Under the pieces are notes generated by a model. The model had not been told where the DNA came from. It saw only the letters and a list, made by a program, of their open reading frames with translations, and ran no database searches. From positions 3,493-67,492 of IMG/VR virus record IMGVR_UViG_3300012956_000023: a DNA stretch of 64,000 bases; one strand, 5' to 3'. The stretch comes from a virus (lineage: Duplodnaviria; Caudoviricetes). The number at the start of each line of letters is the position of its first letter. The stretch's first letter is position 1. The position numbers and the translations under genes are program-made. Below, in pieces: positions 916-38,129 of the stretch.

Positions 916-1877
916 ATAGTTAACATCTCAATCTGTTTAATAAATGCTGTCTCCCAAACTGAATATTCTTCAGTATACTTTAGCATTTTCTGAATACCTT
1001 CCCCCCCAACTTCAGCTGGATCCTCAGTACCATTAAATAATAGGACCTTTACATTCTTGCCAACTGAGGATAACGTATTAGCTAATGCAAATGACTCAAT
1101 TCTAGCATCTGCATCTAACGCTACCACATATTCAGGAGCGTTCATTTTGATCAGTAATTCAACTTGTTTTGGTGATATATATTTCCCATACGTTGCTATG
1201 GAATTACGTCCAGCTAACATAGCACTAAACGGACCTTCACAAATTATTACTTGTTTTGCACAATCTATCCTAGCTTGATTGAATAACGTTACTGATTTAT
1301 ATGCATTAGTAGGAGACATATACTTTACGTTATTCTTCTCAAACGGATGATACCATCTACCTTGCCAGAAGTCATATCCCCCTGTCCTAATAGGATTAGG
1401 GATGATAATTCTCCAAGCTTGTTTACCTCCACCAAGATGAAGATCATAGTGTACAATATCATCTGGAAGGAGATTACGTTTGAGACAATACTCCCAAGCT
1501 AGGGTATAACTATCTGTTAATGGAACTGATCCTTCAGGTAATGGAATCTCCTTAGCTATTAACTTTACATCAGGTTCTGGAAATAAGTATGCTTCAACTT
1601 GCTCAAGTATGTTGATAGGGATTGGATTCCCTGCGAAATTAAGTCCCACTCTAGAAGTAAGGGAACGTATCCCGCGTCCTCGAGTATTACATTTATGACA
1701 TATATAATTGCCATAGTGTCTATCCCGATGATTATGAACATAGAAATGATAGCTGATATCACGTGTTTTCCCATTTTTCTCACAGAAGGGGCAATTAAAC
1801 CTTACTTCTCTCCTATCACCAGTGACTATAAAGGTTCCTAATTTTTGAGATAAATTAGCAATTTCTGGAGATATCAT
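912..1877 (-). CDS. DNA primase
   Basis: N-terminal Zn finger CPFC..H..C..C, TOPRIM motifs ICEGPFSA and LDAD; adjacent to replicative helicase. Confidence 0.85.
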   Translation of the reverse strand: MISPEIANLSQKLGTFIVTGDRREVRFNCPFCEKNGKTRDISYHFYVHNHRDRHYGNYICHKCNTRGRGIRSLTSRVGLNFAGNPIPINILEQVEAYLFPEPDVKLIAKEIPLPEGSVPLTDSYTLAWEYCLKRNLLPDDIVHYDLHLGGGKQAWRIIIPNPIRTGGYDFWQGRWYHPFEKNNVKYMSPTNAYKSVTLFNQARIDCAKQVIICEGPFSAMLAGRNSIATYGKYISPKQVELLIKMNAPEYVVALDADARIESFALANTLSSVGKNVKVLLFNGTEDPAEVGGEGIQKMLKYTEEYSVWETAFIKQIEMLTI

Positions 1878-3247
1878 GGTCTACCTGTTGTAGTTCCTTG
1901 CATTAATGTAGGATCCGGTGGAGTTTCGAATATCTGCATGTGAGCATAATCGACATCCCAATTGATCCCAATCTGAGATTTACCTCGACGAGCTTTATCA
2001 ACCCATCCTCTAGCTTTCCCTGCCTGCATCTCTTCTCTAGTTTGTTGAAGTACAATAACTAAATCCGCATCCATGATCTTCTGGAATGAATCAGCAGTAT
2101 TGTCAGACCGTGCTTCACCTGAAAAGAATCCTTCACGATTTAATTGGGATGCGGTCCATACAGGAAACTTATAATCTTTACCTAGAACAATTAGGTCGGT
2201 GATGATATGCCCAAGGTCGAAATACCTAGACCCACCCGAATCTTTATTTCCCTCTCTTCTTGGGATAGGCATGAGCTTGTCAGCGTAATCATTGCAGAGC
2301 ATACCTGTTGAGACCCCATCAAGTGCCTCAACTCTTGAGATATAAGATCTGATAGAAGCTGCCGTAACACGTCCTGGGTGCATGTACTTAACGCGTAGGT
2401 AATGCTTGTACTTTTTAATTCTTGTGGCTGCTTTGACATACTCATCGTAATAATTTGGATCTAGGATTTGATCAATAGTCATACCTGTAAATCTAGCAGC
2501 AAAGCGTAACAACACGTCTACTTCTGATAACTCGTGTGTAATATATACTACGTTTACCTGATTCTCAATAGCTGCAGCTCCAAGATTTACTAACAACGAT
2601 GATTTACCCTGACCTGCTCCTCCTATAATCATACCTATTTCACCAGCACCTAATCCACCTTTATATGCAGCATCTAACGTAGGCCATCCTGTAGGAACTT
2701 TATGAGAGAATCCAACATCTTGTAATGCAAGTTTAGGTAGCATCTCTAATGAATTAAACAATTCTAACCCATAATCCCCTACACCCATCCCTACATTACA
2801 TGCTTTCTCAATCATACCTCGAACTAATAATGGATCAGCATCCCCATTATTTAGAAACTTAGCTGAATCGAGAATAGCCCCACGTAGTGCTTGATTCTTC
2901 CCGAAGTCTACTGCTTTATCTCTAATATAATCAGCATCACTTAAATCGATATTAAAAATCTTATCAACTAGGCTCGTAATCTCTAACGAGGTAGTTGGAT
3001 CAATATTCATACTACGAATGTATTGATTAGACAATTCATTGGTAGCATCTAGAGTTGGAATACCTTTATACTTATTATAATAATTCTTAACTAGATTCAT
3101 TAAGATACATGACGCATTAGTACTCATGAACCCTGGATCTAAAATATCCCCGTAATATTCTAAGAACTTTTGATCTCTTGCAGCCATGGCAAGGATTTTT
3201 GTTTGGAACTCTATCCCAAAGGTGTATTGTTGCTTTGTGTCTTGCAT
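1874..3247 (-). CDS. DnaB/gp41-like replicative helicase
   Basis: Walker A GGAGQGKS, YITHELS, Walker B-like CNDYAD, WTASQLNR, KARRG. Confidence 0.9.
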   Translation of the reverse strand: MQDTKQQYTFGIEFQTKILAMAARDQKFLEYYGDILDPGFMSTNASCILMNLVKNYYNKYKGIPTLDATNELSNQYIRSMNIDPTTSLEITSLVDKIFNIDLSDADYIRDKAVDFGKNQALRGAILDSAKFLNNGDADPLLVRGMIEKACNVGMGVGDYGLELFNSLEMLPKLALQDVGFSHKVPTGWPTLDAAYKGGLGAGEIGMIIGGAGQGKSSLLVNLGAAAIENQVNVVYITHELSEVDVLLRFAARFTGMTIDQILDPNYYDEYVKAATRIKKYKHYLRVKYMHPGRVTAASIRSYISRVEALDGVSTGMLCNDYADKLMPIPRREGNKDSGGSRYFDLGHIITDLIVLGKDYKFPVWTASQLNREGFFSGEARSDNTADSFQKIMDADLVIVLQQTREEMQAGKARGWVDKARRGKSQIGINWDVDYAHMQIFETPPDPTLMQGTTTGRP

Positions 3248-3280
3248 TTTCTCTCTATACTAGTTTTATCTTAGTTGGGT

Positions 3281-3511
3281 TTATGAAGTCTGCTGTCTAC
3301 GGACCTCGGCACGGGCCACTTCCTTGGTGAGGAGAGATGCCATGGCAGGATTGAAGTCTTTATAGAGCTTATCAAAGATCTCAGCGTATGTTGCGGTTTC
3401 CGGTAAATCTAGTTCTACTGCATCACCCTCTAATGTTAGCTCACCACGAACGGATTCGTAGTTACCAAGATTGATATTATGTGCAACCGTTATTTTGACT
3501 CGTCTTGACAT
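3281..3511 (-). CDS. hypothetical protein
   Basis: 76-aa ORF in operon; NLGNYESVR motif typical of small phage proteins. Confidence 0.6.
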   Translation of the reverse strand: MSRRVKITVAHNINLGNYESVRGELTLEGDAVELDLPETATYAEIFDKLYKDFNPAMASLLTKEVARAEVRRQQTS

Positions 3512-3630
3512 AATCCCTCAATTTCTGAGATTGTTAACAATTTAATTCCAGAAACTCATCTGTTCCCTTACAATAACAGAAGACAAACTTACTTCTGGTA
3601 ATCTGAATAATCTCCGTTTCATGGTTACAC

Positions 3631-3825
3631 CTATGAAATAATCACAATATTTTTAGACTCATGATACGGCCAATCACCAACTTCTTTAAACTCAACCTTT
3701 TCAATTTCTGAATGATATTCAATTGATTCTGGATTACATTCCGAACATCCTTCAGTAGTAGAATACTTTACTTTTGCTTTCGGAGGCAATTTTTGTAATT
3801 TGACAATCAATTCTTCAACAGTCAT
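3631..3825 (-). CDS. hypothetical protein
   Basis: 64-aa ORF with GGAGG RBS; starts MTVEELIVKLQKLPP. Confidence 0.6.
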   Translation of the reverse strand: MTVEELIVKLQKLPPKAKVKYSTTEGCSECNPESIEYHSEIEKVEFKEVGDWPYHESKNIVIIS

Positions 3826-3827
3826 AA

Positions 3828-3953
3828 TTACCTCCCTAGACTAAAGATACAATATAGAACACTATGTCCTACTTTTATACAATCATTGAACATATACACT
3901 TCGATACCGATTGCCACAGCAAGTACCGTAGATACTACAATCAGATACGGCAT
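3828..3953 (-). CDS. small membrane protein (not in ORF track)
   Basis: MPYLIVVSTVLAVAIGIEVYMFNDCIKVGHSVLYCIFSLGR; start overlaps upstream stop; its 3' end holds the RBS of the next gene. Confidence 0.55.
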   Translation of the reverse strand: MPYLIVVSTVLAVAIGIEVYMFNDCIKVGHSVLYCIFSLGR

Positions 3954-4582
3954 TATTTCTCTCCCATCAGTTTCAAGAAGGCATTCTTCAAAGTCTCTTG
4001 AATCCAAACCAGATTATCACCACGGTTTCCCTTGATTCCATAGGCCTTGGCGATATCCACTTTCTTCTCAGAATCCGGATACTCCTCGGTAATCTCGTTG
4101 GCCATTTCGTGAGTTTCTTCATCGAAATGGATATCCAAATTGTGGGCACGAATCAGAATAACGAGATACTTCTTGGCCTTCTGAGACGGTAATTCGTTCA
4201 ACGCTTTACGGATTAGGAGATTGAAACCAACTTCTTCCTCCGGATTCGGACGAGTATCCGCACCGAAGACATCCATGTTGATTTCGCCTTCTTCGTTCTC
4301 CTGCAGATACTGCTCTCTCCAACCAAACTTACGGAACTCGTCACGAGCCTTGTTATAGGCATCAACTTTTGACCTCTTGTAGAACACACCCTTCTGATGG
4401 TTCTTGGTATCACCCTCCATCATCGGGGATTGGAGCCAGTATTCAACCGACTCCTGAAAATGGTCAACATAGGCATAGTTCTTGGTGGAATTCTCTTCCT
4501 TTATACGTTCCATCATCTCTTCTTCTGTCAAAACCGGGAGCAATTCCACTTCTTCCATTTCATTTTCGTTGATCATTTTCAT
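3953..4582 (-). CDS. hypothetical protein, C-terminus resembles sigma-70 region 4/HTH
   Basis: LIRKALNELP...DIAKAYGI...IQETLKNAFLKL pattern. Confidence 0.4.
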   Translation of the reverse strand: MKMINENEMEEVELLPVLTEEEMMERIKEENSTKNYAYVDHFQESVEYWLQSPMMEGDTKNHQKGVFYKRSKVDAYNKARDEFRKFGWREQYLQENEEGEINMDVFGADTRPNPEEEVGFNLLIRKALNELPSQKAKKYLVILIRAHNLDIHFDEETHEMANEITEEYPDSEKKVDIAKAYGIKGNRGDNLVWIQETLKNAFLKLMGEK

Positions 4583-4610
4583 TTATCCCTTTTGATTTTA
4601 GAGATTGTCC

Positions 4611-5048
4611 TTAGTACGCACACTCCGTATTGACACACACCATTTTGCCATCGGCAGCATTAACTTTCTCATAACCACAACGGCACTTGTTCACCACAGT
4701 CTCACCATCTTCATAGAACGGATCGTCTAACGGAAGATTGTCATTCGCAGAAGTCTTGACCACTTTCACTTCCTTCTTGAAGGACGGATCCGGTTGAGCG
4801 ATCAGACTATCAATTGCTTTCTCACCCTTCTGAATTGCACGACGGATCTCCCAGAAATCGTGGAAAGCCGACTTCATGATATCCGTAGAACCATCACCGA
4901 TCGGGATCGAAGTGCTCGCTTCTTGACGCTCACGGAGCTCTTCTTTGGAGACTTCAACAATCGGACAGCTCTTCGGATCGAAGTATGCTCCCCACGACCG
5001 CTGCCACCCTTTGTTTCTCCGCTCCGCTTTTTCACTTGCGCTTTTCAT
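4611..5048 (-). CDS. hypothetical protein with C-terminal Cys4 ribbon
   Basis: AAGGAGG RBS before ATG 5048; CRCG...CVNTEC at C-terminus. Confidence 0.55.
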   Translation of the reverse strand: MKSASEKAERRNKGWQRSWGAYFDPKSCPIVEVSKEELRERQEASTSIPIGDGSTDIMKSAFHDFWEIRRAIQKGEKAIDSLIAQPDPSFKKEVKVVKTSANDNLPLDDPFYEDGETVVNKCRCGYEKVNAADGKMVCVNTECAY

Positions 5049-5108
5049 TTCGACCCTCCTTTTAGGTTTCTGACTTTTTCCCGACGACACCCTTAAGAGT
5101 TGCAAAAC

Positions 5109-5338
5109 TTGGGCCAAAAAGACCCCTTATAAAGGTGCTTTTTGCCTGCTTTTTAGGCAATAAAGGCCTTATGAAGGTGCTTTTTCACTATAAATTGAAT
5201 CGTTGGGCAAAACGCCCCAATGGGTAATCTACTTACCGTTTATTAGGCTAAAACAGACCCTAAACCACGCGTCAACAGAGCGGTTAAGCAGTTGCGGCAA
5301 AACGCCCCAAACCTTTAATAAGTTGGGGCAAAACGCTC
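5109..5338. repeat. cluster of short dispersed repeats in intergenic DNA
   Basis: TTG(G/C)GGCAAAACGCCCCAA-like units at 5203-5220, 5292-5310, 5323-5338 and degenerate 5109-5126; CCTTAT(A/G)AAGGTGCTTTTT twice (~5125, ~5168). Confidence 0.85.
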
Positions 5339-5742
5339 TAATTATAATGACTGAGAAAACTAGATAAATCAGGATAATAGTAATACTCGTTATCTGTATA
5401 ATGAGATACGTCTATATTGTTACGAACAGCTAATTCAGCTATAATACGAGTACGTCTAGAAGAAAAAAGCTTATTATGAAAGATAATCACATGACTTGGC
5501 GTATAACCCTTAAAGATATTCTCTCCTATCATGCAATCTACTTGACTATCATCAAACCCATAAACAGGATTAGGAAACTCAGCTATAGGAATACGTTTTT
5601 CTCTGCTAATAATATCTGCAATAGCTTCCTTACCAGCACCTGACCCGTTTATGATCAAATCACAGTTACTTATGTTGAAGAGAATGGCTCTTACCCTTTT
5701 TAGGCTTATCGACTCGGTGTCTCCACATATTACTATCTGCAT
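5338..5742 (-). CDS. SLOG-family (DUF2493/YspA-like) protein
   Basis: MQIVICGD...IINGSGAGKEAIA...IPIAEFP resembles the SLOG Gly-rich loop pattern. Confidence 0.45.
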   Translation of the reverse strand: MQIVICGDTESISLKRVRAILFNISNCDLIINGSGAGKEAIADIISREKRIPIAEFPNPVYGFDDSQVDCMIGENIFKGYTPSHVIIFHNKLFSSRRTRIIAELAVRNNIDVSHYTDNEYYYYPDLSSFLSHYN

Positions 5743-5863
5743 TGTATACTTTCTGTAAATCTATAGTATTAGAGCAGTTTACACATCTCATTACTTTGAT
5801 AGTAACAAAATAGTCTGTAACGTCATCATTTACCATAAATCCTTGGCAACGTGGACAAATCAT
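5666..5863 (-). CDS. small zinc-ribbon protein
   Basis: CPRC-x18-RCVNC. Confidence 0.6.
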   Translation of the reverse strand: MICPRCQGFMVNDDVTDYFVTIKVMRCVNCSNTIDLQKVYNADSNMWRHRVDKPKKGKSHSLQHK

Positions 5864-6432
5864 TTATCCCTCGACGCTGATACAGAATTAGAGTTCTGAT
5901 ACTTCCCTTCATATGGCTTAATGGCAGAAGCATCCATTTTATGATAAATCAACTGAGCAATCTTCAATCCTGGATATATAGGGAGAGCATGATTCTGAGT
6001 AATATTCTGAAGTTCCATGGTCAGAACTCCATTCCAACCAGGGTCTACCCAGAATGCTAAACTATGGTTGTATCCTTCACGAGCACGAGACGATTTGAGT
6101 TTCAGTTCCATACAATACCCATTAGGAACATGTATGTGCTCCATAGTTTCAGCTAGAAAGAATGTTCCAGGATAAATCCAATGAGGATTATCCTTAGTTT
6201 TACCTCCAATATTATACTTAAAGAAATTATTTGGAGTTTGCCATGGCTTCGAGACACTTGTATACCCTTTATTAAGGATATCGTATGTATGTGAAGGAAG
6301 GGGAGTGGATTCTAACATAATCCACTCCCCTATCCTAATATCTATAGATGCTGGATTTACTAACGACTCATCCAGATTAGTCTTTATCAATTGAGGAAGT
6401 AACGACAACAATGTACCATCTGATAAAATCAT
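5860..6432 (-). CDS. dcd: dCTP deaminase
   Basis: NPASIDIRIG, FFLAETME, KSSRAREG, VDPGWNGVLTMEL, GLKIAQL. Confidence 0.92.
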   Translation of the reverse strand: MILSDGTLLSLLPQLIKTNLDESLVNPASIDIRIGEWIMLESTPLPSHTYDILNKGYTSVSKPWQTPNNFFKYNIGGKTKDNPHWIYPGTFFLAETMEHIHVPNGYCMELKLKSSRAREGYNHSLAFWVDPGWNGVLTMELQNITQNHALPIYPGLKIAQLIYHKMDASAIKPYEGKYQNSNSVSASRDK

Positions 6433-6439
6433 ATCTACC

Positions 6440-6877
6440 TTACTTTCTAAATTGTTCCTTGGTAAGATTATTAGTATTCATGTATGCTATTACTTGTTCA
6501 TTAATACTAGGAGGAATTCCTTCAGTATTTTCCCATAGAACCCCAGGCCATCTGGAATAGATCTCTTCAGGTCCTATTGAAACTAACCATAGATGTTTAC
6601 CCTTGATCAAATCAGCTAGATAATTTTTTACTTTCAATCCTGCTACACGCTCCTCAGGATTCTTCGGTCTCCATGTTTCAGGGGCATCATATCCATCTAA
6701 TCGAATTCGAATACTAGATTGTACACCAAATCCTTGATCTACAACCACATCAAGAGTGTCACCATCTACTATCTTAGTTACTTCTTTAATCTTGAAGAAG
6801 GTAACTGGTTCCTGTGCATATGAAATAGTAGTAAAAATTCCGATAACTAACTCAATGATAAAAATCTTTAATTTCAT
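6440..6877 (-). CDS. thermonuclease (SNase-like)
   Basis: VDGDTLDV, IRLDGYDAPE motifs; hydrophobic N-terminus. Confidence 0.85.
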   Translation of the reverse strand: MKLKIFIIELVIGIFTTISYAQEPVTFFKIKEVTKIVDGDTLDVVVDQGFGVQSSIRIRLDGYDAPETWRPKNPEERVAGLKVKNYLADLIKGKHLWLVSIGPEEIYSRWPGVLWENTEGIPPSINEQVIAYMNTNNLTKEQFRK

Positions 6878-6885
6878 AAATTCCT

Positions 6886-7326
6886 TTATACTACATTAGT
6901 TACAACAATTACTCGATCATCTAGTATATGCTCGATTGTAGGTTTTACATACTCCCAATCAAGACCTCCTAAACCACACCCTGGTCTAGGAAGATACACT
7001 CGCTCTAATCTATATGTCTCAATAAGTTTTATTAATTCTAAACAGGATTGTTGAACTAATTCCACAGTTGAGAAAGTATGCCAATTATCCTTAGTAGGAA
7101 AAGATATCAATCTCTCATATATAAATATCCCACAATGATTTCCATTAGCCATAACATGAATACCAAATAATTGACTAATATGTGGAAATCTATCTACTGC
7201 TTCCTTAGCAATACCACCCCCCATTACTAACCGGTTATCCTTATTTAGAGATCCGTTAGTAGTGATGCAAATCCATTCTCCTTTTTTATGGAGATCCCAT
7301 AACTCAGCAACTAATTCTTTCATCAT
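6886..7326 (-). CDS. macrodomain (ADP-ribose binding/hydrolase) protein
   Basis: ITTNG..VMGGGIA, FPTK, LPRPGCGLGGLDW. Confidence 0.88.
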   Translation of the reverse strand: MMKELVAELWDLHKKGEWICITTNGSLNKDNRLVMGGGIAKEAVDRFPHISQLFGIHVMANGNHCGIFIYERLISFPTKDNWHTFSTVELVQQSCLELIKLIETYRLERVYLPRPGCGLGGLDWEYVKPTIEHILDDRVIVVTNVV

Positions 7327-7451
7327 ATCTCCTATTATATATAGTCCAATCTATGGGCCACATTCAACATATCCTCTAATGATAGCACTGTAATCTCTTT
7401 AATCATGATTTATCAACCTATTTACGCTCAGTTTGGTTCATGCACCGTCAA

Positions 7452-7805
7452 TTACATTGACGCGGGCACGGCTTCGGGCTTTAATAAAGCACCTTGTATA
7501 GGGCTTTCTTGGAGTTCGAATTTGTGTAAGAACACAATTTCATCACCTTTAAAGCCTTTAGGATGGATAGTTTCCCATACTTTTACAAATTCATTAGGAG
7601 ACTTACATCCTTCTTGTTCATAATACTCAGTAGCTACTACCTTCAACGGTACTACAATTACAGATTTAACTAGGAATATATATCCAAATGCAGCAAACGT
7701 ATCTCCCGGATTAGCCATACATGAAGTACGACAGGTCATAGTTTTATCACCAGAGATCATCAAACTCTTCCATTTATGTAGGAAAGAGATATTACGTTTT
7801 GCCAT
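7452..7805 (-). CDS. ASCH/PUA-like domain protein
   Basis: GDKTMTCRT, PGDTF, YEQEG..SP.EF..VW. Confidence 0.7.
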   Translation of the reverse strand: MAKRNISFLHKWKSLMISGDKTMTCRTSCMANPGDTFAAFGYIFLVKSVIVVPLKVVATEYYEQEGCKSPNEFVKVWETIHPKGFKGDEIVFLHKFELQESPIQGALLKPEAVPASM

Positions 7806-8295
7806 TTTCTTTCCCCCATATTGCTTCATGTAGATCTTTGACTTTTACTTCTCGTACCCGTACCATATACGTAGCAGCCAGACGATACACCATCCCATAA
7901 TAATGAATCTCTGCATCATCTGGAAGTAGAAATTCATATGGATACGCATACTGTGCCTTATATCCCTTAGTATGCTCTTGAACTTCCCCCCACAGAGAAA
8001 CTCTCCCTATTATTCCAACTTTATCAGCATTTCCAATAGCACCGGTAATACGAATTACCGATCCTTTTACATCTGGAGTATATTGTCTACAAGAATCAAG
8101 ATCCTTGAATGCAAAGACAGCATGAGTACGATCCTTAGCAACAATAGGTTGCATAGGAAGCCATTGATGCTTTTCAGGCACTCCGTGCTCATCTGTAACA
8201 ATAGGACATATAGAATATGTGGGTTGGTTATTGATCATCTTTGTTTTCACCACCCACATACGAATACCGATTTTTATTCCAGGGATTTGTTTCAT
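7792..8295 (-). CDS. hypothetical protein
   Basis: IGIRMW and GRVSLWGEVQEHTKGYKAQYAYP motifs. Confidence 0.6.
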   Translation of the reverse strand: MKQIPGIKIGIRMWVVKTKMINNQPTYSICPIVTDEHGVPEKHQWLPMQPIVAKDRTHAVFAFKDLDSCRQYTPDVKGSVIRITGAIGNADKVGIIGRVSLWGEVQEHTKGYKAQYAYPYEFLLPDDAEIHYYGMVYRLAATYMVRVREVKVKDLHEAIWGKENGKT

Positions 8296-33529: not shown

Positions 33530-33850
33530 ATGAGTGTAATGAAAGCTCTTTTAAATGAGAAGTCAAATCAGTCAGTTGAGGAATTTAAGCAGAATGTGAT
33601 TACCGAGGGAGTTCGTATTTTCGAATCCGGAGTAGATTCACCATTCAAGATGAGTTCCTTGAAGGAAGATAATCAGTTGCAGAGCTTGTTTGAATCAACA
33701 AACGAGAAGGATCAGAAGCGAGCGGCATTAACATGTATCGCTTTGGAGAATCAGGCTGCATGGTTGCATGGAGTTATTAAGAACTACGGCGAAGCTACTG
33801 TTATGGGTAGCTTGGGTGCTCTTACTCCTAAGATCATGGACGTGGTGCGT
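33530..33850 (+). CDS. major capsid protein exon 1 (107 codons)
   Basis: ends ...TPKIMDVVR at U33850, which pairs with the intron IGS. Confidence 0.9.
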
Positions 33851-35012
33851 TACTAACTTGGTTCGGGTAGACCAATATGCGCACAAAAAATCCCGTGAAT
33901 TGCTGGAAACTCCTATAGAGCCATAGACGCTAATATAACAGGAAACTGGTATAAAGTAAAGTTCTATGGATTGGACAATCAGCAGCCAAGCTCCTGTGAC
34001 GAAAGTCTGGAGAAGGCCCAGAGACTAGTGAAGAGATTATACTATGATTACTTGTCTTATTTGTAATAAAGAATTAAGTATTTTATGTAGCCACCTTAAA
34101 AGGATTCATAAAATTTCTAAAGAAGATTATGTATTAAAGTTTCCAGGCGCACAAATAATTAGTGAGGAAGAAACTTTAAGAAGGTCTAATTCAAATTACA
34201 AATTATGGGCAAGTCGTACTGAGGAGGAAAAGTCTAAGGCAGGTAAGATTAGAAGACAAGGATGGACTAATGAATCTCATATAAATATGGTTCAGTCTAA
34301 ATTGTCTTATTATCAGACTTTGTCTAGTGAAGAAAGAATTAAGCTTCTTGAAAAGATGAATACTATGTCTATTAATTTTCATAATTCTCCAAAATATGAA
34401 GTCAATAGGCTAGTAAGAAATAATCATATTTCAGAAGGTCATCTTAGAAATGTACAAAGAGATTCGAGTCAATATGTAAAGAGAATGTTGAATGCAAATT
34501 CTAAAATGCATTATTGGCTTAGAACTTGTTCAGAAGATGAACTTAGTTCTTTTCTTAAAAGATCTTTCTTAAAACCTCCAAAGCTTAGTACTTTTGAATA
34601 TAAAGGAAAAGCTTATAAAGTACGCTCTTCTTATGAAAAGCTAGTGCTTAAAGTTCTTGTTGATTTTAACTTGAATTTTAAGTATGAAGTATGCTTAAAA
34701 CGGCCTGATGGTCGTAGGTATATGGCTGACTTCATAGTAGAAGATAAGTTATGTTTAGAGCCTAAGTCTATTTATTATGTAGAAGCTCAAGGTGGTGAAT
34801 ACGATTTAGGTATGAAGAGATTAGCTGCTGAAAATAAGAACTATAAATTTGTTCTTTTAACAGAAGTTGAAATCTTTAAATGTAACTTAAAAGAAATTAT
34901 AAGATCTCTTTGCCACGAGTGCGGGATACAGATTAAGGAATCTGTAATGATATAGTCCGAACTCATATGAAAGTATGAGAAGACAAGATAAAGAACTTGT
35001 CGTTAACATTTG
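33851..35012 (+). mobile_element. group I intron 1 in MCP (1162 nt)
   Basis: P AATTGCTGGAAAC 33898, Q AATCAGCAGCC 33977, R ..GAGACTA 34016-27, S GATATAGTCC 34949; P1 GUGCGU/GCGCAC; P10 AAUAU/AUAUU; terminal G. Confidence 0.93.
34044..34955 (+). CDS. intron-encoded homing endonuclease (Zn finger + PD-(D/E)XK, TnsA-like)
   Basis: CLIC..HLKRIH; RSSYEK..FKYE..YMADF..LEPK. Confidence 0.8.
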   Translation: MITCLICNKELSILCSHLKRIHKISKEDYVLKFPGAQIISEEETLRRSNSNYKLWASRTEEEKSKAGKIRRQGWTNESHINMVQSKLSYYQTLSSEERIKLLEKMNTMSINFHNSPKYEVNRLVRNNHISEGHLRNVQRDSSQYVKRMLNANSKMHYWLRTCSEDELSSFLKRSFLKPPKLSTFEYKGKAYKVRSSYEKLVLKVLVDFNLNFKYEVCLKRPDGRRYMADFIVEDKLCLEPKSIYYVEAQGGEYDLGMKRLAAENKNYKFVLLTEVEIFKCNLKEIIRSLCHECGIQIKESVMI

Positions 35013-35024
35013 ATATTTTATCCT
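35013..35024 (+). CDS. major capsid protein exon 2 (12 nt, IFYP)
   Basis: ATATTTTATCCT between the terminal G of intron 1 and P1 of intron 2. Confidence 0.88.
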
Positions 35025-35993
35025 CAGGAAGTAGCATTTAGCTAACTGATTAGGGATAGTAAAACGGGTTGAATTGCTGGGAGGTCCTTAGAACTGTGGA
35101 AGCTACAACGCAGATGGAAACGTCAATCGTGAATGCCGAAAATCTCCACGGATTGGATAATCAGCAGCTAAGCTCCTGTAGTGAAAACTTGGAGCCAGTT
35201 CAACGACTAACTGATTTATCGTATGATAGTAAGAACGATCTAGTTATCTGCAGATTATGTGGTGTAACTAGACGTAAGCTGTACTTTCATCTTCGTTGCG
35301 ATCATAATTTATCTCAACAGGAATATCTTAAACAATTTCCTGGTGCGAAACTGTTTTCTAATTTAGAAATGAATTATAGAAAAGGTTTCTTAGATAAAGG
35401 TCGTAATTTAGATACTACGACAAGATTGAAGACGAATGAAATTCTTAGTAATCGTACAAAAGAGTTTCATAAATCTTTTTGGACTTCGAATAATCCTGAG
35501 GTTCTAGATCGTCGTAGAAAATTAAGTAAAGCTGGACAAACAAGTGTTCGTAGTCAATGTCGGTTTAAGCAATATGAATATCAAGGAATAACGTATAAAT
35601 TACGAAGTAATTTAGAATTCGTATTTATTCAGTTTTTAATTGATAATCAAATTGAGTATCAATATGAACCGTTTATTCTAGAAATTGGTGAAGTATCTAC
35701 TACTCCTGATTTTTATTTACCGAAGTACAATTTGGTAATAGAATGTAAAGGTTCCTATTGGTATAGAAAACGTCAAGAAATGTATGATAAAGTGATTGCT
35801 GGAGTTAAAGCAATTCATAATTATAATTACTTGATGTTAATTGATGTTGAAACGAAACCGAGTTTGCAATTGTTATTAGATAAATTGGACACGAGTAGCT
35901 CGGCAGTTCTCTATACAGAGGATTGTGTGATATAGTCTGAACTATCTAGAGATAGATAGATGATAGGATAAAGAGCCTATCGATAACAAAATG
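35025..35993 (+). mobile_element. group I intron 2 in MCP (969 nt)
   Basis: P 35072, Q 35159, R GTTCAACGACTA 35198, S 35929; P1 UAUCCU/GGGAUA; P10 UGAUU/AAUCA; terminal G. Confidence 0.93.
35069..35935 (+). CDS. intron-encoded homing endonuclease (Zn finger + PD-(D/E)XK); start uncertain
   Basis: CRLC..HLRCDH; RSNLE..YQYEP..TPDF..IECK. Confidence 0.8.
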   Translation: MNCWEVLRTVEATTQMETSIVNAENLHGLDNQQLSSCSENLEPVQRLTDLSYDSKNDLVICRLCGVTRRKLYFHLRCDHNLSQQEYLKQFPGAKLFSNLEMNYRKGFLDKGRNLDTTTRLKTNEILSNRTKEFHKSFWTSNNPEVLDRRRKLSKAGQTSVRSQCRFKQYEYQGITYKLRSNLEFVFIQFLIDNQIEYQYEPFILEIGEVSTTPDFYLPKYNLVIECKGSYWYRKRQEMYDKVIAGVKAIHNYNYLMLIDVETKPSLQLLLDKLDTSSSAVLYTEDCVI

Positions 35994-37001
35994 AATCAAG
36001 TAGCTCACTTGTTAACTGATATTCAACCTCTGACTCAGCAAACTGGTCAGATCTTCATCATCAAGCCAAAGTATTCACAGACAGCTGGTGGTGTGACAAA
36101 GGGTCAGGAAGTCTTCAAGAATATGTCTGATGGTACATACGCATCAGAGAAGATGACTGTAACTCTTGGTACAGGTAACGCATCTTTAGTCAACTTCGTA
36201 GGATCCCTCCAGGCTCCTGTGAAGCGTGATGGTACTGTGATCATTAAGCGTGCAGGTACGAAGGTAGCTGCTGATAATGGTCTTGGTGCTATCCTTGGTA
36301 CTGACGGTGCTGCTACTATCTCTGGTACAGTGAACTATGATACTGGTGCCATTGCTGTTCTTTGGTCAGCTGCTCCTGCAACTGGTGCGGTAACTGTTGA
36401 GTTCTTGGCTGATTCCGAAATCAACGTAAGCTTGATTCGTGAGTTGGAAATTTCTCTCGACATGGTGCCTGTGCGTGCACAAGAGCATCCATTGAAGGTA
36501 AAATGGAGCATCACAGCTCAGTTAGCTGCTCAGGCTCACCTGGGTATTGACATTGGTGATACGCTTACTGACTTAGCCGCACAGTTCGTGCGTGTTGAGC
36601 GTGATAAGCTGGTTATCGATGCTATTGCAAATAGTGCAACAGCTGACTCAGTGTTGAACTTCACTGCATCACAAAACGTAAACATTCCTAAGTGGCAGAC
36701 ATTCCAGGAAATCGAGTTGAAGCTGAATGCTGGTGAATCTAACATTCAGACAGCTAACGGTAACCGTGGAGGTGTCAGCTGGATCGTAGGTGGACAGAAC
36801 GCATGTAACATTTGGCGTACTGTTCGTGGATTCCAGGCGGATACGCCAAAGAACCCAATCGGTGCCCATAAGATCGGTACCCTTCGCGATGGCGATGTGG
36901 ATGTGATCAAGGCTCCGTTCCTAGATACCGATAAGTATGTAATCGGATTCAAGGGTTATATGCCTGGAGATAGTGCTATGATTCTTGCGGAGTGGATCCC
37001 T
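35994..37001 (+). CDS. major capsid protein exon 3 (336 codons)
   Basis: DIQPLTQQTGQIF, V.A..H.LK.KWS.TAQ, E....VIDAI, IGFKG; T4 gp23/HK97-fold motifs. Confidence 0.92.
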
Positions 37002-38000
37002 GAAATGAATACAAACGGGGCACATGCAGGAAACTGCTTGTTGAATTAATTTTTATTAATTATCCTATAATTCAGAGGGTGAATTGCTGGAAACTCCAAT
37101 TACAAATCGGACAATCAGCAGCCAAGCTACTGAGGGATCAGTAGAAGGTTCAACGACTAGAGATAGTAATCTAGACCAGGTGAAATCTCCACGAGCGCCC
37201 TCTACCTTAATTGATAGAAATGAATCTTATGTGTATGTTTATCTGGATATTCGCAAACCAGGTAAATATACTTATACAAAGTTGAATGTCTCGTTTCTGT
37301 TTGAACCATTCTATGTTGGTAAAGGAATTGGCGGTAGGTATCTTAGTCATTTAGGAATTTTAAATGAATCTATAAGAAAAGGTTCTTATAAAGATAATAA
37401 GATTCTTAAAATTTATAAAGATACTAATAGAACTAATTTCATTACCAAAATAATGAAAGGTTTATCTGACATTGAAGCTTGTGAATTAGAACGTAAGTTC
37501 ATACAAGCAATTGGAAGATATGATCTTAAAACAGGCCCGTTAACTAATTTGACTGATGGTGGAGATGGGTTATTAAATCTGTCTGCAGAAGTCAGAAAAC
37601 GTGCAGGTATGGCAATTGCTATAACTCAAAAGGGTAATACGAGACGCTCCGATGTATTAAAAGGAAAACCAGCTTCGAAAGAAGTAAGAGAATTACTCTT
37701 AAGTTATACTTATAAAGGTCTTGGTGGTGCAGCTGGAAAGAACACTCCGAAAAGTGAATCTCACCGACTAGCTATTTCGGAAAATACAAAAGGTAAGCCG
37801 AAAACTCTTCGAGAGAAAACCTGCTTACTTTGTAATTCAAGAGTTCTATTTAAGTATGCATCAGTGATATCTCATTTTAAGCAACATAAAGTAATTTCTT
37901 ACAAGGATTCCTTGGTTCATTTATCAACAGGTAATGATATAGTCTGAGCTTCATGGTAACATGAAGAAGTGAAGATAAAGAACTTCACGGTAACAATCTG
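37002..38000 (+). mobile_element. group I intron 3 in MCP (999 nt)
   Basis: P 37082, Q 37113, R 37148, S 37936; short P1 CCCU/GGGG; terminal G at 38000. Confidence 0.9.
37084..37947 (+). CDS. intron-encoded GIY-YIG-like homing endonuclease; start uncertain
   Basis: YVYVYLD..PFYVGKG..R...H, E..FI..IG..PLTNL, NUMOD3-like KSESHRLAIS. Confidence 0.82.
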   Translation: MLETPITNRTISSQATEGSVEGSTTRDSNLDQVKSPRAPSTLIDRNESYVYVYLDIRKPGKYTYTKLNVSFLFEPFYVGKGIGGRYLSHLGILNESIRKGSYKDNKILKIYKDTNRTNFITKIMKGLSDIEACELERKFIQAIGRYDLKTGPLTNLTDGGDGLLNLSAEVRKRAGMAIAITQKGNTRRSDVLKGKPASKEVRELLLSYTYKGLGGAAGKNTPKSESHRLAISENTKGKPKTLREKTCLLCNSRVLFKYASVISHFKQHKVISYKDSLVHLSTGNDIV

Positions 38001-38129
38001 ATGTACTTCACTCCAGTATTCAATAGCCCTAACTTGCAGGGTGAAAGAGGTTTGATGAGCTTGTATGACTTGTTCATCAACAACCCTCTGTACTACCGTT
38101 CTGGAACAATTTCTAGCTACGGGGCATAA
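38001..38129 (+). CDS. major capsid protein exon 4 (42 aa, not in ORF track)
   Basis: MYFTPVFNSPNLQGERGLMSLYDLFINNPLYYRSGTISSYGA completes the typical MCP C-terminus after AEWIP. Confidence 0.9.
   Translation: MYFTPVFNSPNLQGERGLMSLYDLFINNPLYYRSGTISSYGA

Follow-up and report, generated by a model that had tools for sequence, protein, structure and literature searches.

How does an exon of 12 nucleotides come to lie between two group I introns in a phage capsid gene, and does its small size serve the expression of that gene? The question is raised by the window analyzed here, 64 kb taken from an uncultured-phage contig of 67.5 kb in IMG/VR with an estimated completeness of 28%. On the plus strand, which carries all window features described below, the segments 33530–33850, 35013–35024, 35994–37001, and 38001–38129 were joined into one frame of 1470 nt encoding a gp23-type major capsid protein (MCP) of 489 aa, with the gene spanning 33530–38129. 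The four exons measure 321, 12, 1008, and 129 nt, all are in phase 0, and none contains a stop or a frameshift. Exon 1 (33530–33850) holds 107 codons and ends in ...DVVR with U33850 as its last base, at a point where homologues read ...DVVRIFYPN. Exon 2 (35013–35024), the micro-exon, reads ATATTTTATCCT and encodes IFYP, exon 3 (35994–37001) holds 336 codons from NQVAHLL to AEWIP, and exon 4 (38001–38129) holds 42 codons plus the stop. The junction between exons 3 and 4, WIP|MYFTP, agrees with homologues. Exon 3 matched the Pfam family Gp23 (PF07068) at 67.6 bits (E 1.7e-18), above the cut-off of 24.4 bits, and this match, together with an alignment to solved gp23 structures, assigns the MCP to the T4 gp23 type.

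An earlier sequence-only reading had placed a 12-nt exon for IFYP between two group I introns, and its coordinates proved exact (G35012 | 35013–35024 | 35025). It had also held that all three introns of the gene lie between codons, as the joined phase-0 frame bears out, and that skipping of exon 2 would leave the frame open, which follows from its length of four codons. The three group I introns measure 1162, 969, and 999 nt. Intron 1 (33851–35012) and intron 2 (35025–35993) are IA2-like, each is preceded by U and ends in G (G35012 and G35993), and each carries an early in-frame stop, one codon past the 5′ splice site in intron 1 and after six codons in intron 2. Intron 3 (37002–38000) scored 55.6 bits in Rfam, over the gathering score. 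For introns 1 and 2, the Rfam model RF00028 gave partial matches at 33898–34032 (31.7 bits) and 34945–34977 (20.7 bits) in intron 1 and at 35070–35237 (30.3 bits) and 35815–35959 (21.4 bits) in intron 2; with the region as the sole query, the E-values for both halves of both introns were 2e-5 to 5e-2. Each half-match falls below the 50-bit gathering score because ORFs of 0.7–0.9 kb split the model. A base-by-base check found P3, P4, P7, P8, P9, and P9.1 intact in both introns, and their P4–P6 regions folded canonically. The U·G pair of P1, the terminal omega-G with its P10, and a core including the strands of the P3/P7 pseudoknot were found in both, as expected of group I introns. These features indicate that introns 1 and 2 are complete group I ribozymes, predicted to be self-splicing.

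All three introns carry ORFs of the endonuclease type. The putative endonuclease ORF of intron 1 (34044–34955) encodes 303 aa with a MucR-like zinc finger at the N terminus and a nuclease-like region at the C terminus, and that of intron 2 (about 35225–35935) belongs to the same family, with an uncertain start in a frame open from 35069. These two ORFs matched PHROG families of endonucleases, resolvase-like proteins, and homing endonucleases at E 1e-5 to 1e-11, and showed weak matches in Pfam (MucR-type zinc finger). The ORF of intron 3 (37084–37947) encodes a GIY-YIG endonuclease (Pfam LEM-3 GIY-YIG). Between introns 1 and 2, identity is about 56% in the cores, where the P7 strands agree fully, and about 20% in the ORFs, so the pair did not arise by recent tandem duplication. 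We also observed that the TAG stop codons of all three intron ORFs (34953–34955, 35933–35935, and 37945–37947) lie inside the conserved GATATAGTC of the P7 3′ strand, so each endonuclease frame runs through P3′ and P8 into P7.

Two alternative readings can be weighed against this architecture. In the first, the gene is broken, with one or both introns no longer able to splice, either in a defective phage or through assembly of a non-viable variant. The window comes from a 28%-complete metagenomic fragment, and introns 1 and 2 score below the Rfam gathering score, as such a reading would have it. Both introns nevertheless retain all core helices, the guide pairings, the U and G at their splice sites, and the early in-frame stops, the exons lack stops and frameshifts, and other samples have yielded nearly identical pieces of exon 1 (P0101) and of exon 3 (P0004), so that we consider a broken gene highly improbable. 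In the second, 33851–35993 is one composite intron in which a 12-mer coding for IFYP occurs by chance. The shortness of the exon is the one feature in its favor, and against it stands the presence, within 33851–35993, of two separate, complete group I cores and two putative endonuclease ORFs. The 12-mer is moreover in frame, has a terminal G before it and a P1 hairpin after it, and supplies exactly the motif missing between exons 1 and 3. We give a composite intron practically no credence; homologue comparison effectively refuted it, as there are relatives in which one intron is present without the other.

We then examined how the exon bases are used by the two introns. The internal guide of intron 1 (33874–33884) consists of a P10 strand, AAUAU (33874–33878), adjoining on its 3′ side the P1 strand GCGCAC (33879–33884). 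The latter pairs with the end of exon 1, GUGCGU, at 6/6 positions, including the terminal U33850·G33879 pair. In intron 2, the guide (35047–35058) comprises the P10 strand UGAUU (35047–35051), A35052, and the P1 strand GGGAUA (35053–35058), and its P10 strand pairs with the start of exon 3, AAUCA, at 5/5 positions. In both guides, the P10 and P1 strands are neighbors in the canonical arrangement. The sequence-only reading had proposed that the start of the micro-exon forms P10 of intron 1 and its end forms P1 of intron 2, and both helices were recovered. AUAUU (35013–35017, exon nucleotides 1–5) pairs with AAUAU of intron 1 at 5/5 positions, and UAUCCU (35019–35024) pairs with GGGAUA of intron 2 at 6/6, with U35024·G35053 as the terminal pair. 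An unconstrained minimum free energy (MFE) fold returned the P1 hairpins of both introns, that of intron 2 with 7 bp through the addition of U35018·G35059. With five nucleotides in P10 of intron 1 and seven in P1 of intron 2, all 12 exon nucleotides can pair, where the earlier reading had nearly the whole exon engaged. Such pairing is rare in the window: the P10 guide of intron 1 pairs fully with 0.2–0.6% of all 5-mers, and the P1 guide of intron 2 with 0.02–0.5% of 6-mers. The two helices (35013–35017 and 35018–35024) adjoin without a spacer, use separate nucleotides, and do not reach outside the exon. Separately, a 5-bp hairpin, UUGGU/ACCAA, at 33858–33875 in the P1 loop of intron 1 shares 33874–33875 with the P10 guide; given this two-base overlap, the hairpin and P10 are partly exclusive.

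The protein segment encoded by the micro-exon was examined in 85 full-length homologues, proteins retrieved from a large metagenomic collection. The pattern [IVL]F[YF]P was present in all 85, and IFYP itself in 77. The sequence-only reading would have been contradicted by homologues lacking an equivalent four-residue segment; we looked for these and found none (0/85). Uninterrupted homologues read DVVRIFYPN(Q/L). In the nearest cultured-phage homologues, those of Xanthomonas phage phiXF1 and Pseudomonas phage QdP_Psa3, the genes are uninterrupted, and the motif region reads VVDVVRIFYPNLI and VLDLVRIFYPNLI, respectively. Intron-less DNA from eleven loci showed continuous coding sequence, and one of these (L013) carries the identical 12-mer ATATTTTATCCT. 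When the full-length relative P0005 was aligned to the T4 gp23 chains 8gmo, 5vf3, and 6uzc, RIFYPN stood opposite RRAIPN. As this is at about residue 35 of mature T4 gp23, the motif lies in the mature capsid protein and not in the cleaved propeptide.

We next compared intron occupancy among relatives, calling the insertion point of intron 1 site 1 (R|I) and that of intron 2 site 2 (P|N); a further point, D|L, lies 9 nt 5′ of site 1. For relatives whose genes are split, occupancy was inferred from where their ORFs start and stop (P-numbers denote protein sequences). A relative of 93% identity (P0003) starts with MIFYPNQV, indicating a break at site 1 only, and P0101 (97% identity) and P0105 end in ...DVVR, with site 1 occupied. 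P0103 and P0104 end in ...DVVRIFYP with read-through after it, as expected when site 2 alone is occupied, and P0004, P0006, P0007, P0013, and P0080 start with MNQ..., with site 2 occupied. The sequences are continuous and uninterrupted in P0005, P0008, P0009, P0011, P0014, L008, and many others. Relatives and window together thus present site 1 only, site 2 only, both, and neither, the presence/absence polymorphism by which mobile introns are recognized. Each of the two introns is found by itself in some relatives, so they did not evolve together as a unit. These patterns, read from gene sequences, identify the micro-exon as the apparent outcome of independent insertions by related but distinct mobile introns.

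Two of the split relatives show further irregularities. P0004, 96% identical to exon 3 of the window, turns unrelated after ...KNPIG and then stops, at a position corresponding to about 36860 in the window; this divergence points to one more intron site or to an artefact of the contig. The close relative P0102 agrees with residues 1–65 of exon 1 at 100% identity and has an unrelated tail after ...KDQKRA; an insertion here too, a frameshift, or chimeric assembly could account for this tail.

A distant relative with a similar arrangement lies on a metagenome contig, Ga0302198_10002799 (L018), whose MCP is 38% identical to that of the window; the identical sequence was recovered from a second sample (L017). 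As in the window, back-to-back group I introns split the motif, and the micro-exon between them provides P10 for the upstream and P1 for the downstream intron. The upstream intron (6413–6818; Rfam 85 bits) sits at D|L, the micro-exon (6819–6839) reads CTAGTTCGTATATTTTACCCT and encodes LVRIFYP, and the downstream, endonuclease-bearing intron (6840–8000; intron B), an ortholog of intron 2 of the window, is inserted exactly at site 2. The exon therefore has 21 nt where that of the window has 12, and the upstream intron lies 9 nt further 5′ and, unlike intron 1, is without an ORF. The upstream intron forms P10 between AACUAG and the first six exon bases, and the downstream intron forms P1 between GGGGUA and the last six, UACCCU. 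Compared with UAUCCU/GGGAUA in the window, this is a compensatory change in P1. Intron 2 of the window is closest to this intron B, with cores 61–65% identical and ORFs 26% identical. Elsewhere on the same contig (1040–5191), a DNA polymerase ORF of 1383 aa has an apparent large in-frame insertion between ...TCFPGNT and ...VAHNCSFG, which resembles an intein that includes an endonuclease domain.

A second distant relative, L260 (43% identity), has a 3.7-kb insertion (1549–5279) at site 1, before IFYP, and none at site 2. This insertion contains two large ORFs on opposite strands, and its 3′ end, GGATAAAAAGCC...ACATG, resembles the intron family of the window. Rfam found no group I core in it, and its P7 3′ element reads GATATGCTG in place of GATATAGTC; it may be a decayed or unusual intron. 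Further downstream on L260, at 5418–6000, lies a normal group I intron of 68 bits.

Searches beyond these loci placed the introns in a wider setting. A megablast of the region against phage records gave no match, and no relatives emerged when viral contigs were scanned with a single protein. Alignment-based scans returned relatives at no more than 50% identity, and the one metagenome scan yielded L008–L018. A pattern covering the guide and P3 region of intron 2, TAGTAAAACGNNTTNAATTGCTGG, had no match in viral contigs, and the pattern TTGATATTTTAYCCT had at least 117 chance matches, none of those listed being at a related capsid gene. The signature GATATAGTC-N29-GATAAAGA matched at least 115 stretches, from related introns that interrupt other phage genes, and, among the matches listed, none in this gp23-type capsid family. 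It marks a widespread phage intron family. The viral contigs L030, L045, L068, L042, and L020 carry it, and several contigs with the signature have, in genes for tail or other structural proteins, two ORF-less introns spaced by about 360 nt, with exons of about 90–130 nt as judged by eye.

Does the close spacing impose an order of splicing? An obligatory order, in which the two cores cannot dock at once and the maturation of capsid mRNA is slowed or gated without any isoforms being made, would draw on two features of the window. The P10 helix of intron 1 abuts the P1 helix of intron 2 without a spacer, so simultaneous docking may be sterically impossible, which would amount to a mild imposed order; and transcription reaches the 3′ core strands of intron 2 about 0.9 kb past the exon, which gives intron 1 a head start. 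Against this, the helices use separate nucleotides and are independent of the presence of the other intron, so base pairing does not force an order and either order is chemically possible. The 21-nt exon of L018 and the exons of about 90–130 nt left by other tandem introns of the family likewise give no sign of selection for tight spacing. As far as the sequence can tell, an obligatory order is thus possible but rather unlikely. The earlier proposal that pairing over the exon could impose a splicing order for regulation found no support, and the use of separate nucleotides by the helices and the independent occurrence of the introns speak against it.

The same proposal had envisaged a capsid isoform produced by exon skipping. 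Here, a hybrid ribozyme or use of the distal 5′ splice site would join exons 1 and 3 in a programmed manner to give a capsid protein without IFYP. Such a product would be in frame, the P7 strands are common to both introns, and skipping is documented in other tandem arrangements. In the Staphylococcus phage Twort, orf142 has a 23-nt exon between the group I introns I2 and I3 and shows exon skipping (Landthaler & Shub 1999, cited in PMC10136302 and PMC3073962). As described there, orf142 resembles the capsid gene of the window in being a phage late gene with three IA2-type group I introns, two of them around a very short exon. The Twort introns are described as highly similar and as giving skipped products, whereas those of the window are about 56% identical, differ in their P1, P10, and P3 strands, and both carry putative endonuclease ORFs. 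In the 23S rRNA gene of Coxiella burnetii, tandem group I introns flank a 34-nt exon, and skipping was detected by RT-PCR (PMC10136302). This case shares with the window unrelated or dissimilar group I introns around a short exon in a bacterial-type system; it differs in lying in an rRNA gene instead of a protein-coding one and in its exon length. Skipping by tandem group I introns proceeds through a large hybrid ribozyme, when the introns are similar, or through the distal 5′ splice site; it has been seen even between introns of different subgroups, and tandem Tetrahymena introns reproduce it (PMC10136302). With engineered tandem introns, differentiated P1/P10 and core strands select for exon inclusion (PMC10136302).

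In the window, the guides are differentiated in this manner. The P10 guide of intron 1 forms 1/5 pairs with the start of exon 3, the P1 guide of intron 2 forms 2/6 pairs with the end of exon 1, and a hybrid P3 made of the 5′ strand of intron 1 and the 3′ strand of intron 2 forms 1/6, against 6/6 and 5/6 in the cognate helices. The two highly similar introns of the Twort I2/I3 type that a large hybrid ribozyme calls for were not found, the cores being about 56% identical and the hybrid P3 nearly unpaired, and either intron occurs alone in relatives. Since the skipped product would lose a motif invariant in 85/85 homologues, in the mature part of gp23-type proteins, and since the guides are differentiated, a programmed isoform is without support. 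We therefore regard programmed skipping as very unlikely, and the isoform suggestion of the sequence-only reading is not supported. A minor exon-skipped product may, by analogy with these systems, accompany inclusion. There is likewise only a slim chance that the fully paired exon acts as a coupling device, tied to ribozyme folding, that forces sequential splicing or allows low-level skipping; were this so, capsid supply or the formation of a four-residue-shorter variant would depend on folding conditions during infection.

The explanation that we favor, and consider very likely from the sequence comparisons, is that two separate mobile introns inserted 12 bp apart and that the exon between them is constitutively included, as a by-product of insertion and not a regulatory switch. 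Two mobile group I introns, each with its own putative endonuclease gene, would have entered DVVR|IFYP|NQV, the most conserved motif of the MCP, and thereby created the 12-nt exon; conservation of the protein motif accounts for that of the target DNA. Each ribozyme would then rely on its own guide to find its splice sites. For intron 1, the P1 guide would pair with the last bases of exon 1 and the P10 guide with micro-exon nucleotides 1–5; for intron 2, the P1 guide would pair with micro-exon nucleotides 6/7–12 and the P10 guide with the first bases of exon 3. Because the needs of both ribozymes are met on separate exon nucleotides, either could splice with the other still in place or already gone, and the micro-exon would be kept constitutively to yield the normal ...VVRIFYPNQV... 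capsid protein. Intron 1 would probably be removed first for purely kinetic reasons, since its core is complete once the micro-exon has been transcribed; in intron 2, the P3′, P8, and P7′ strands are found at 35890–35937, about 0.9 kb past the exon and behind its ORF. We infer splicing itself, its order, and the history of homing from sequence.

Even shorter exons have been described in mitochondrial cox1 genes, of 1 nt in Placozoa (PMC5436844) and of 3 nt in Agaricus bisporus (PMC2987802). Like the exon of the window, these lie between independent, neighboring insertions in a highly conserved coding motif, and they are retained in the mRNA. They differ in being organellar, in having introns of the IB type, and in being too short for a full P1 or a full P10, whereas the window exon holds both. 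Capsid genes interrupted by several group I introns with endonuclease domains are also known from the Zeta and Delta groups of crAss-like phages (PMC7886860); these MCPs belong to a lineage other than the gp23 type, and micro-exons and guide pairings are absent from that description. Compared with the published bacterial and phage cases considered here (Twort, 23 nt; Coxiella, 34 nt), the window exon is the shortest.

Short exons between tandem group I introns were already known, and the capsid gene of the window reveals no new mechanism. The case is unusually tidy because its exon is fully used by two guide sequences: a complete P10, a complete P1, and an invariant capsid motif are contained in 12 nt, which shows how little exon two ribozymes need. 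Being shorter than the exons of Twort and Coxiella, it would be a useful substrate for asking whether differentiated guides alone ensure inclusion. For the gp23-type family, DVVR-IFYP-N emerges as a recurrent target of different mobile introns, with at least three insertion sites within 21 bp in MCPs down to 38% identity. This matters for the annotation of capsid genes in metagenomes, where gene callers split the reading frame at these insertion points.
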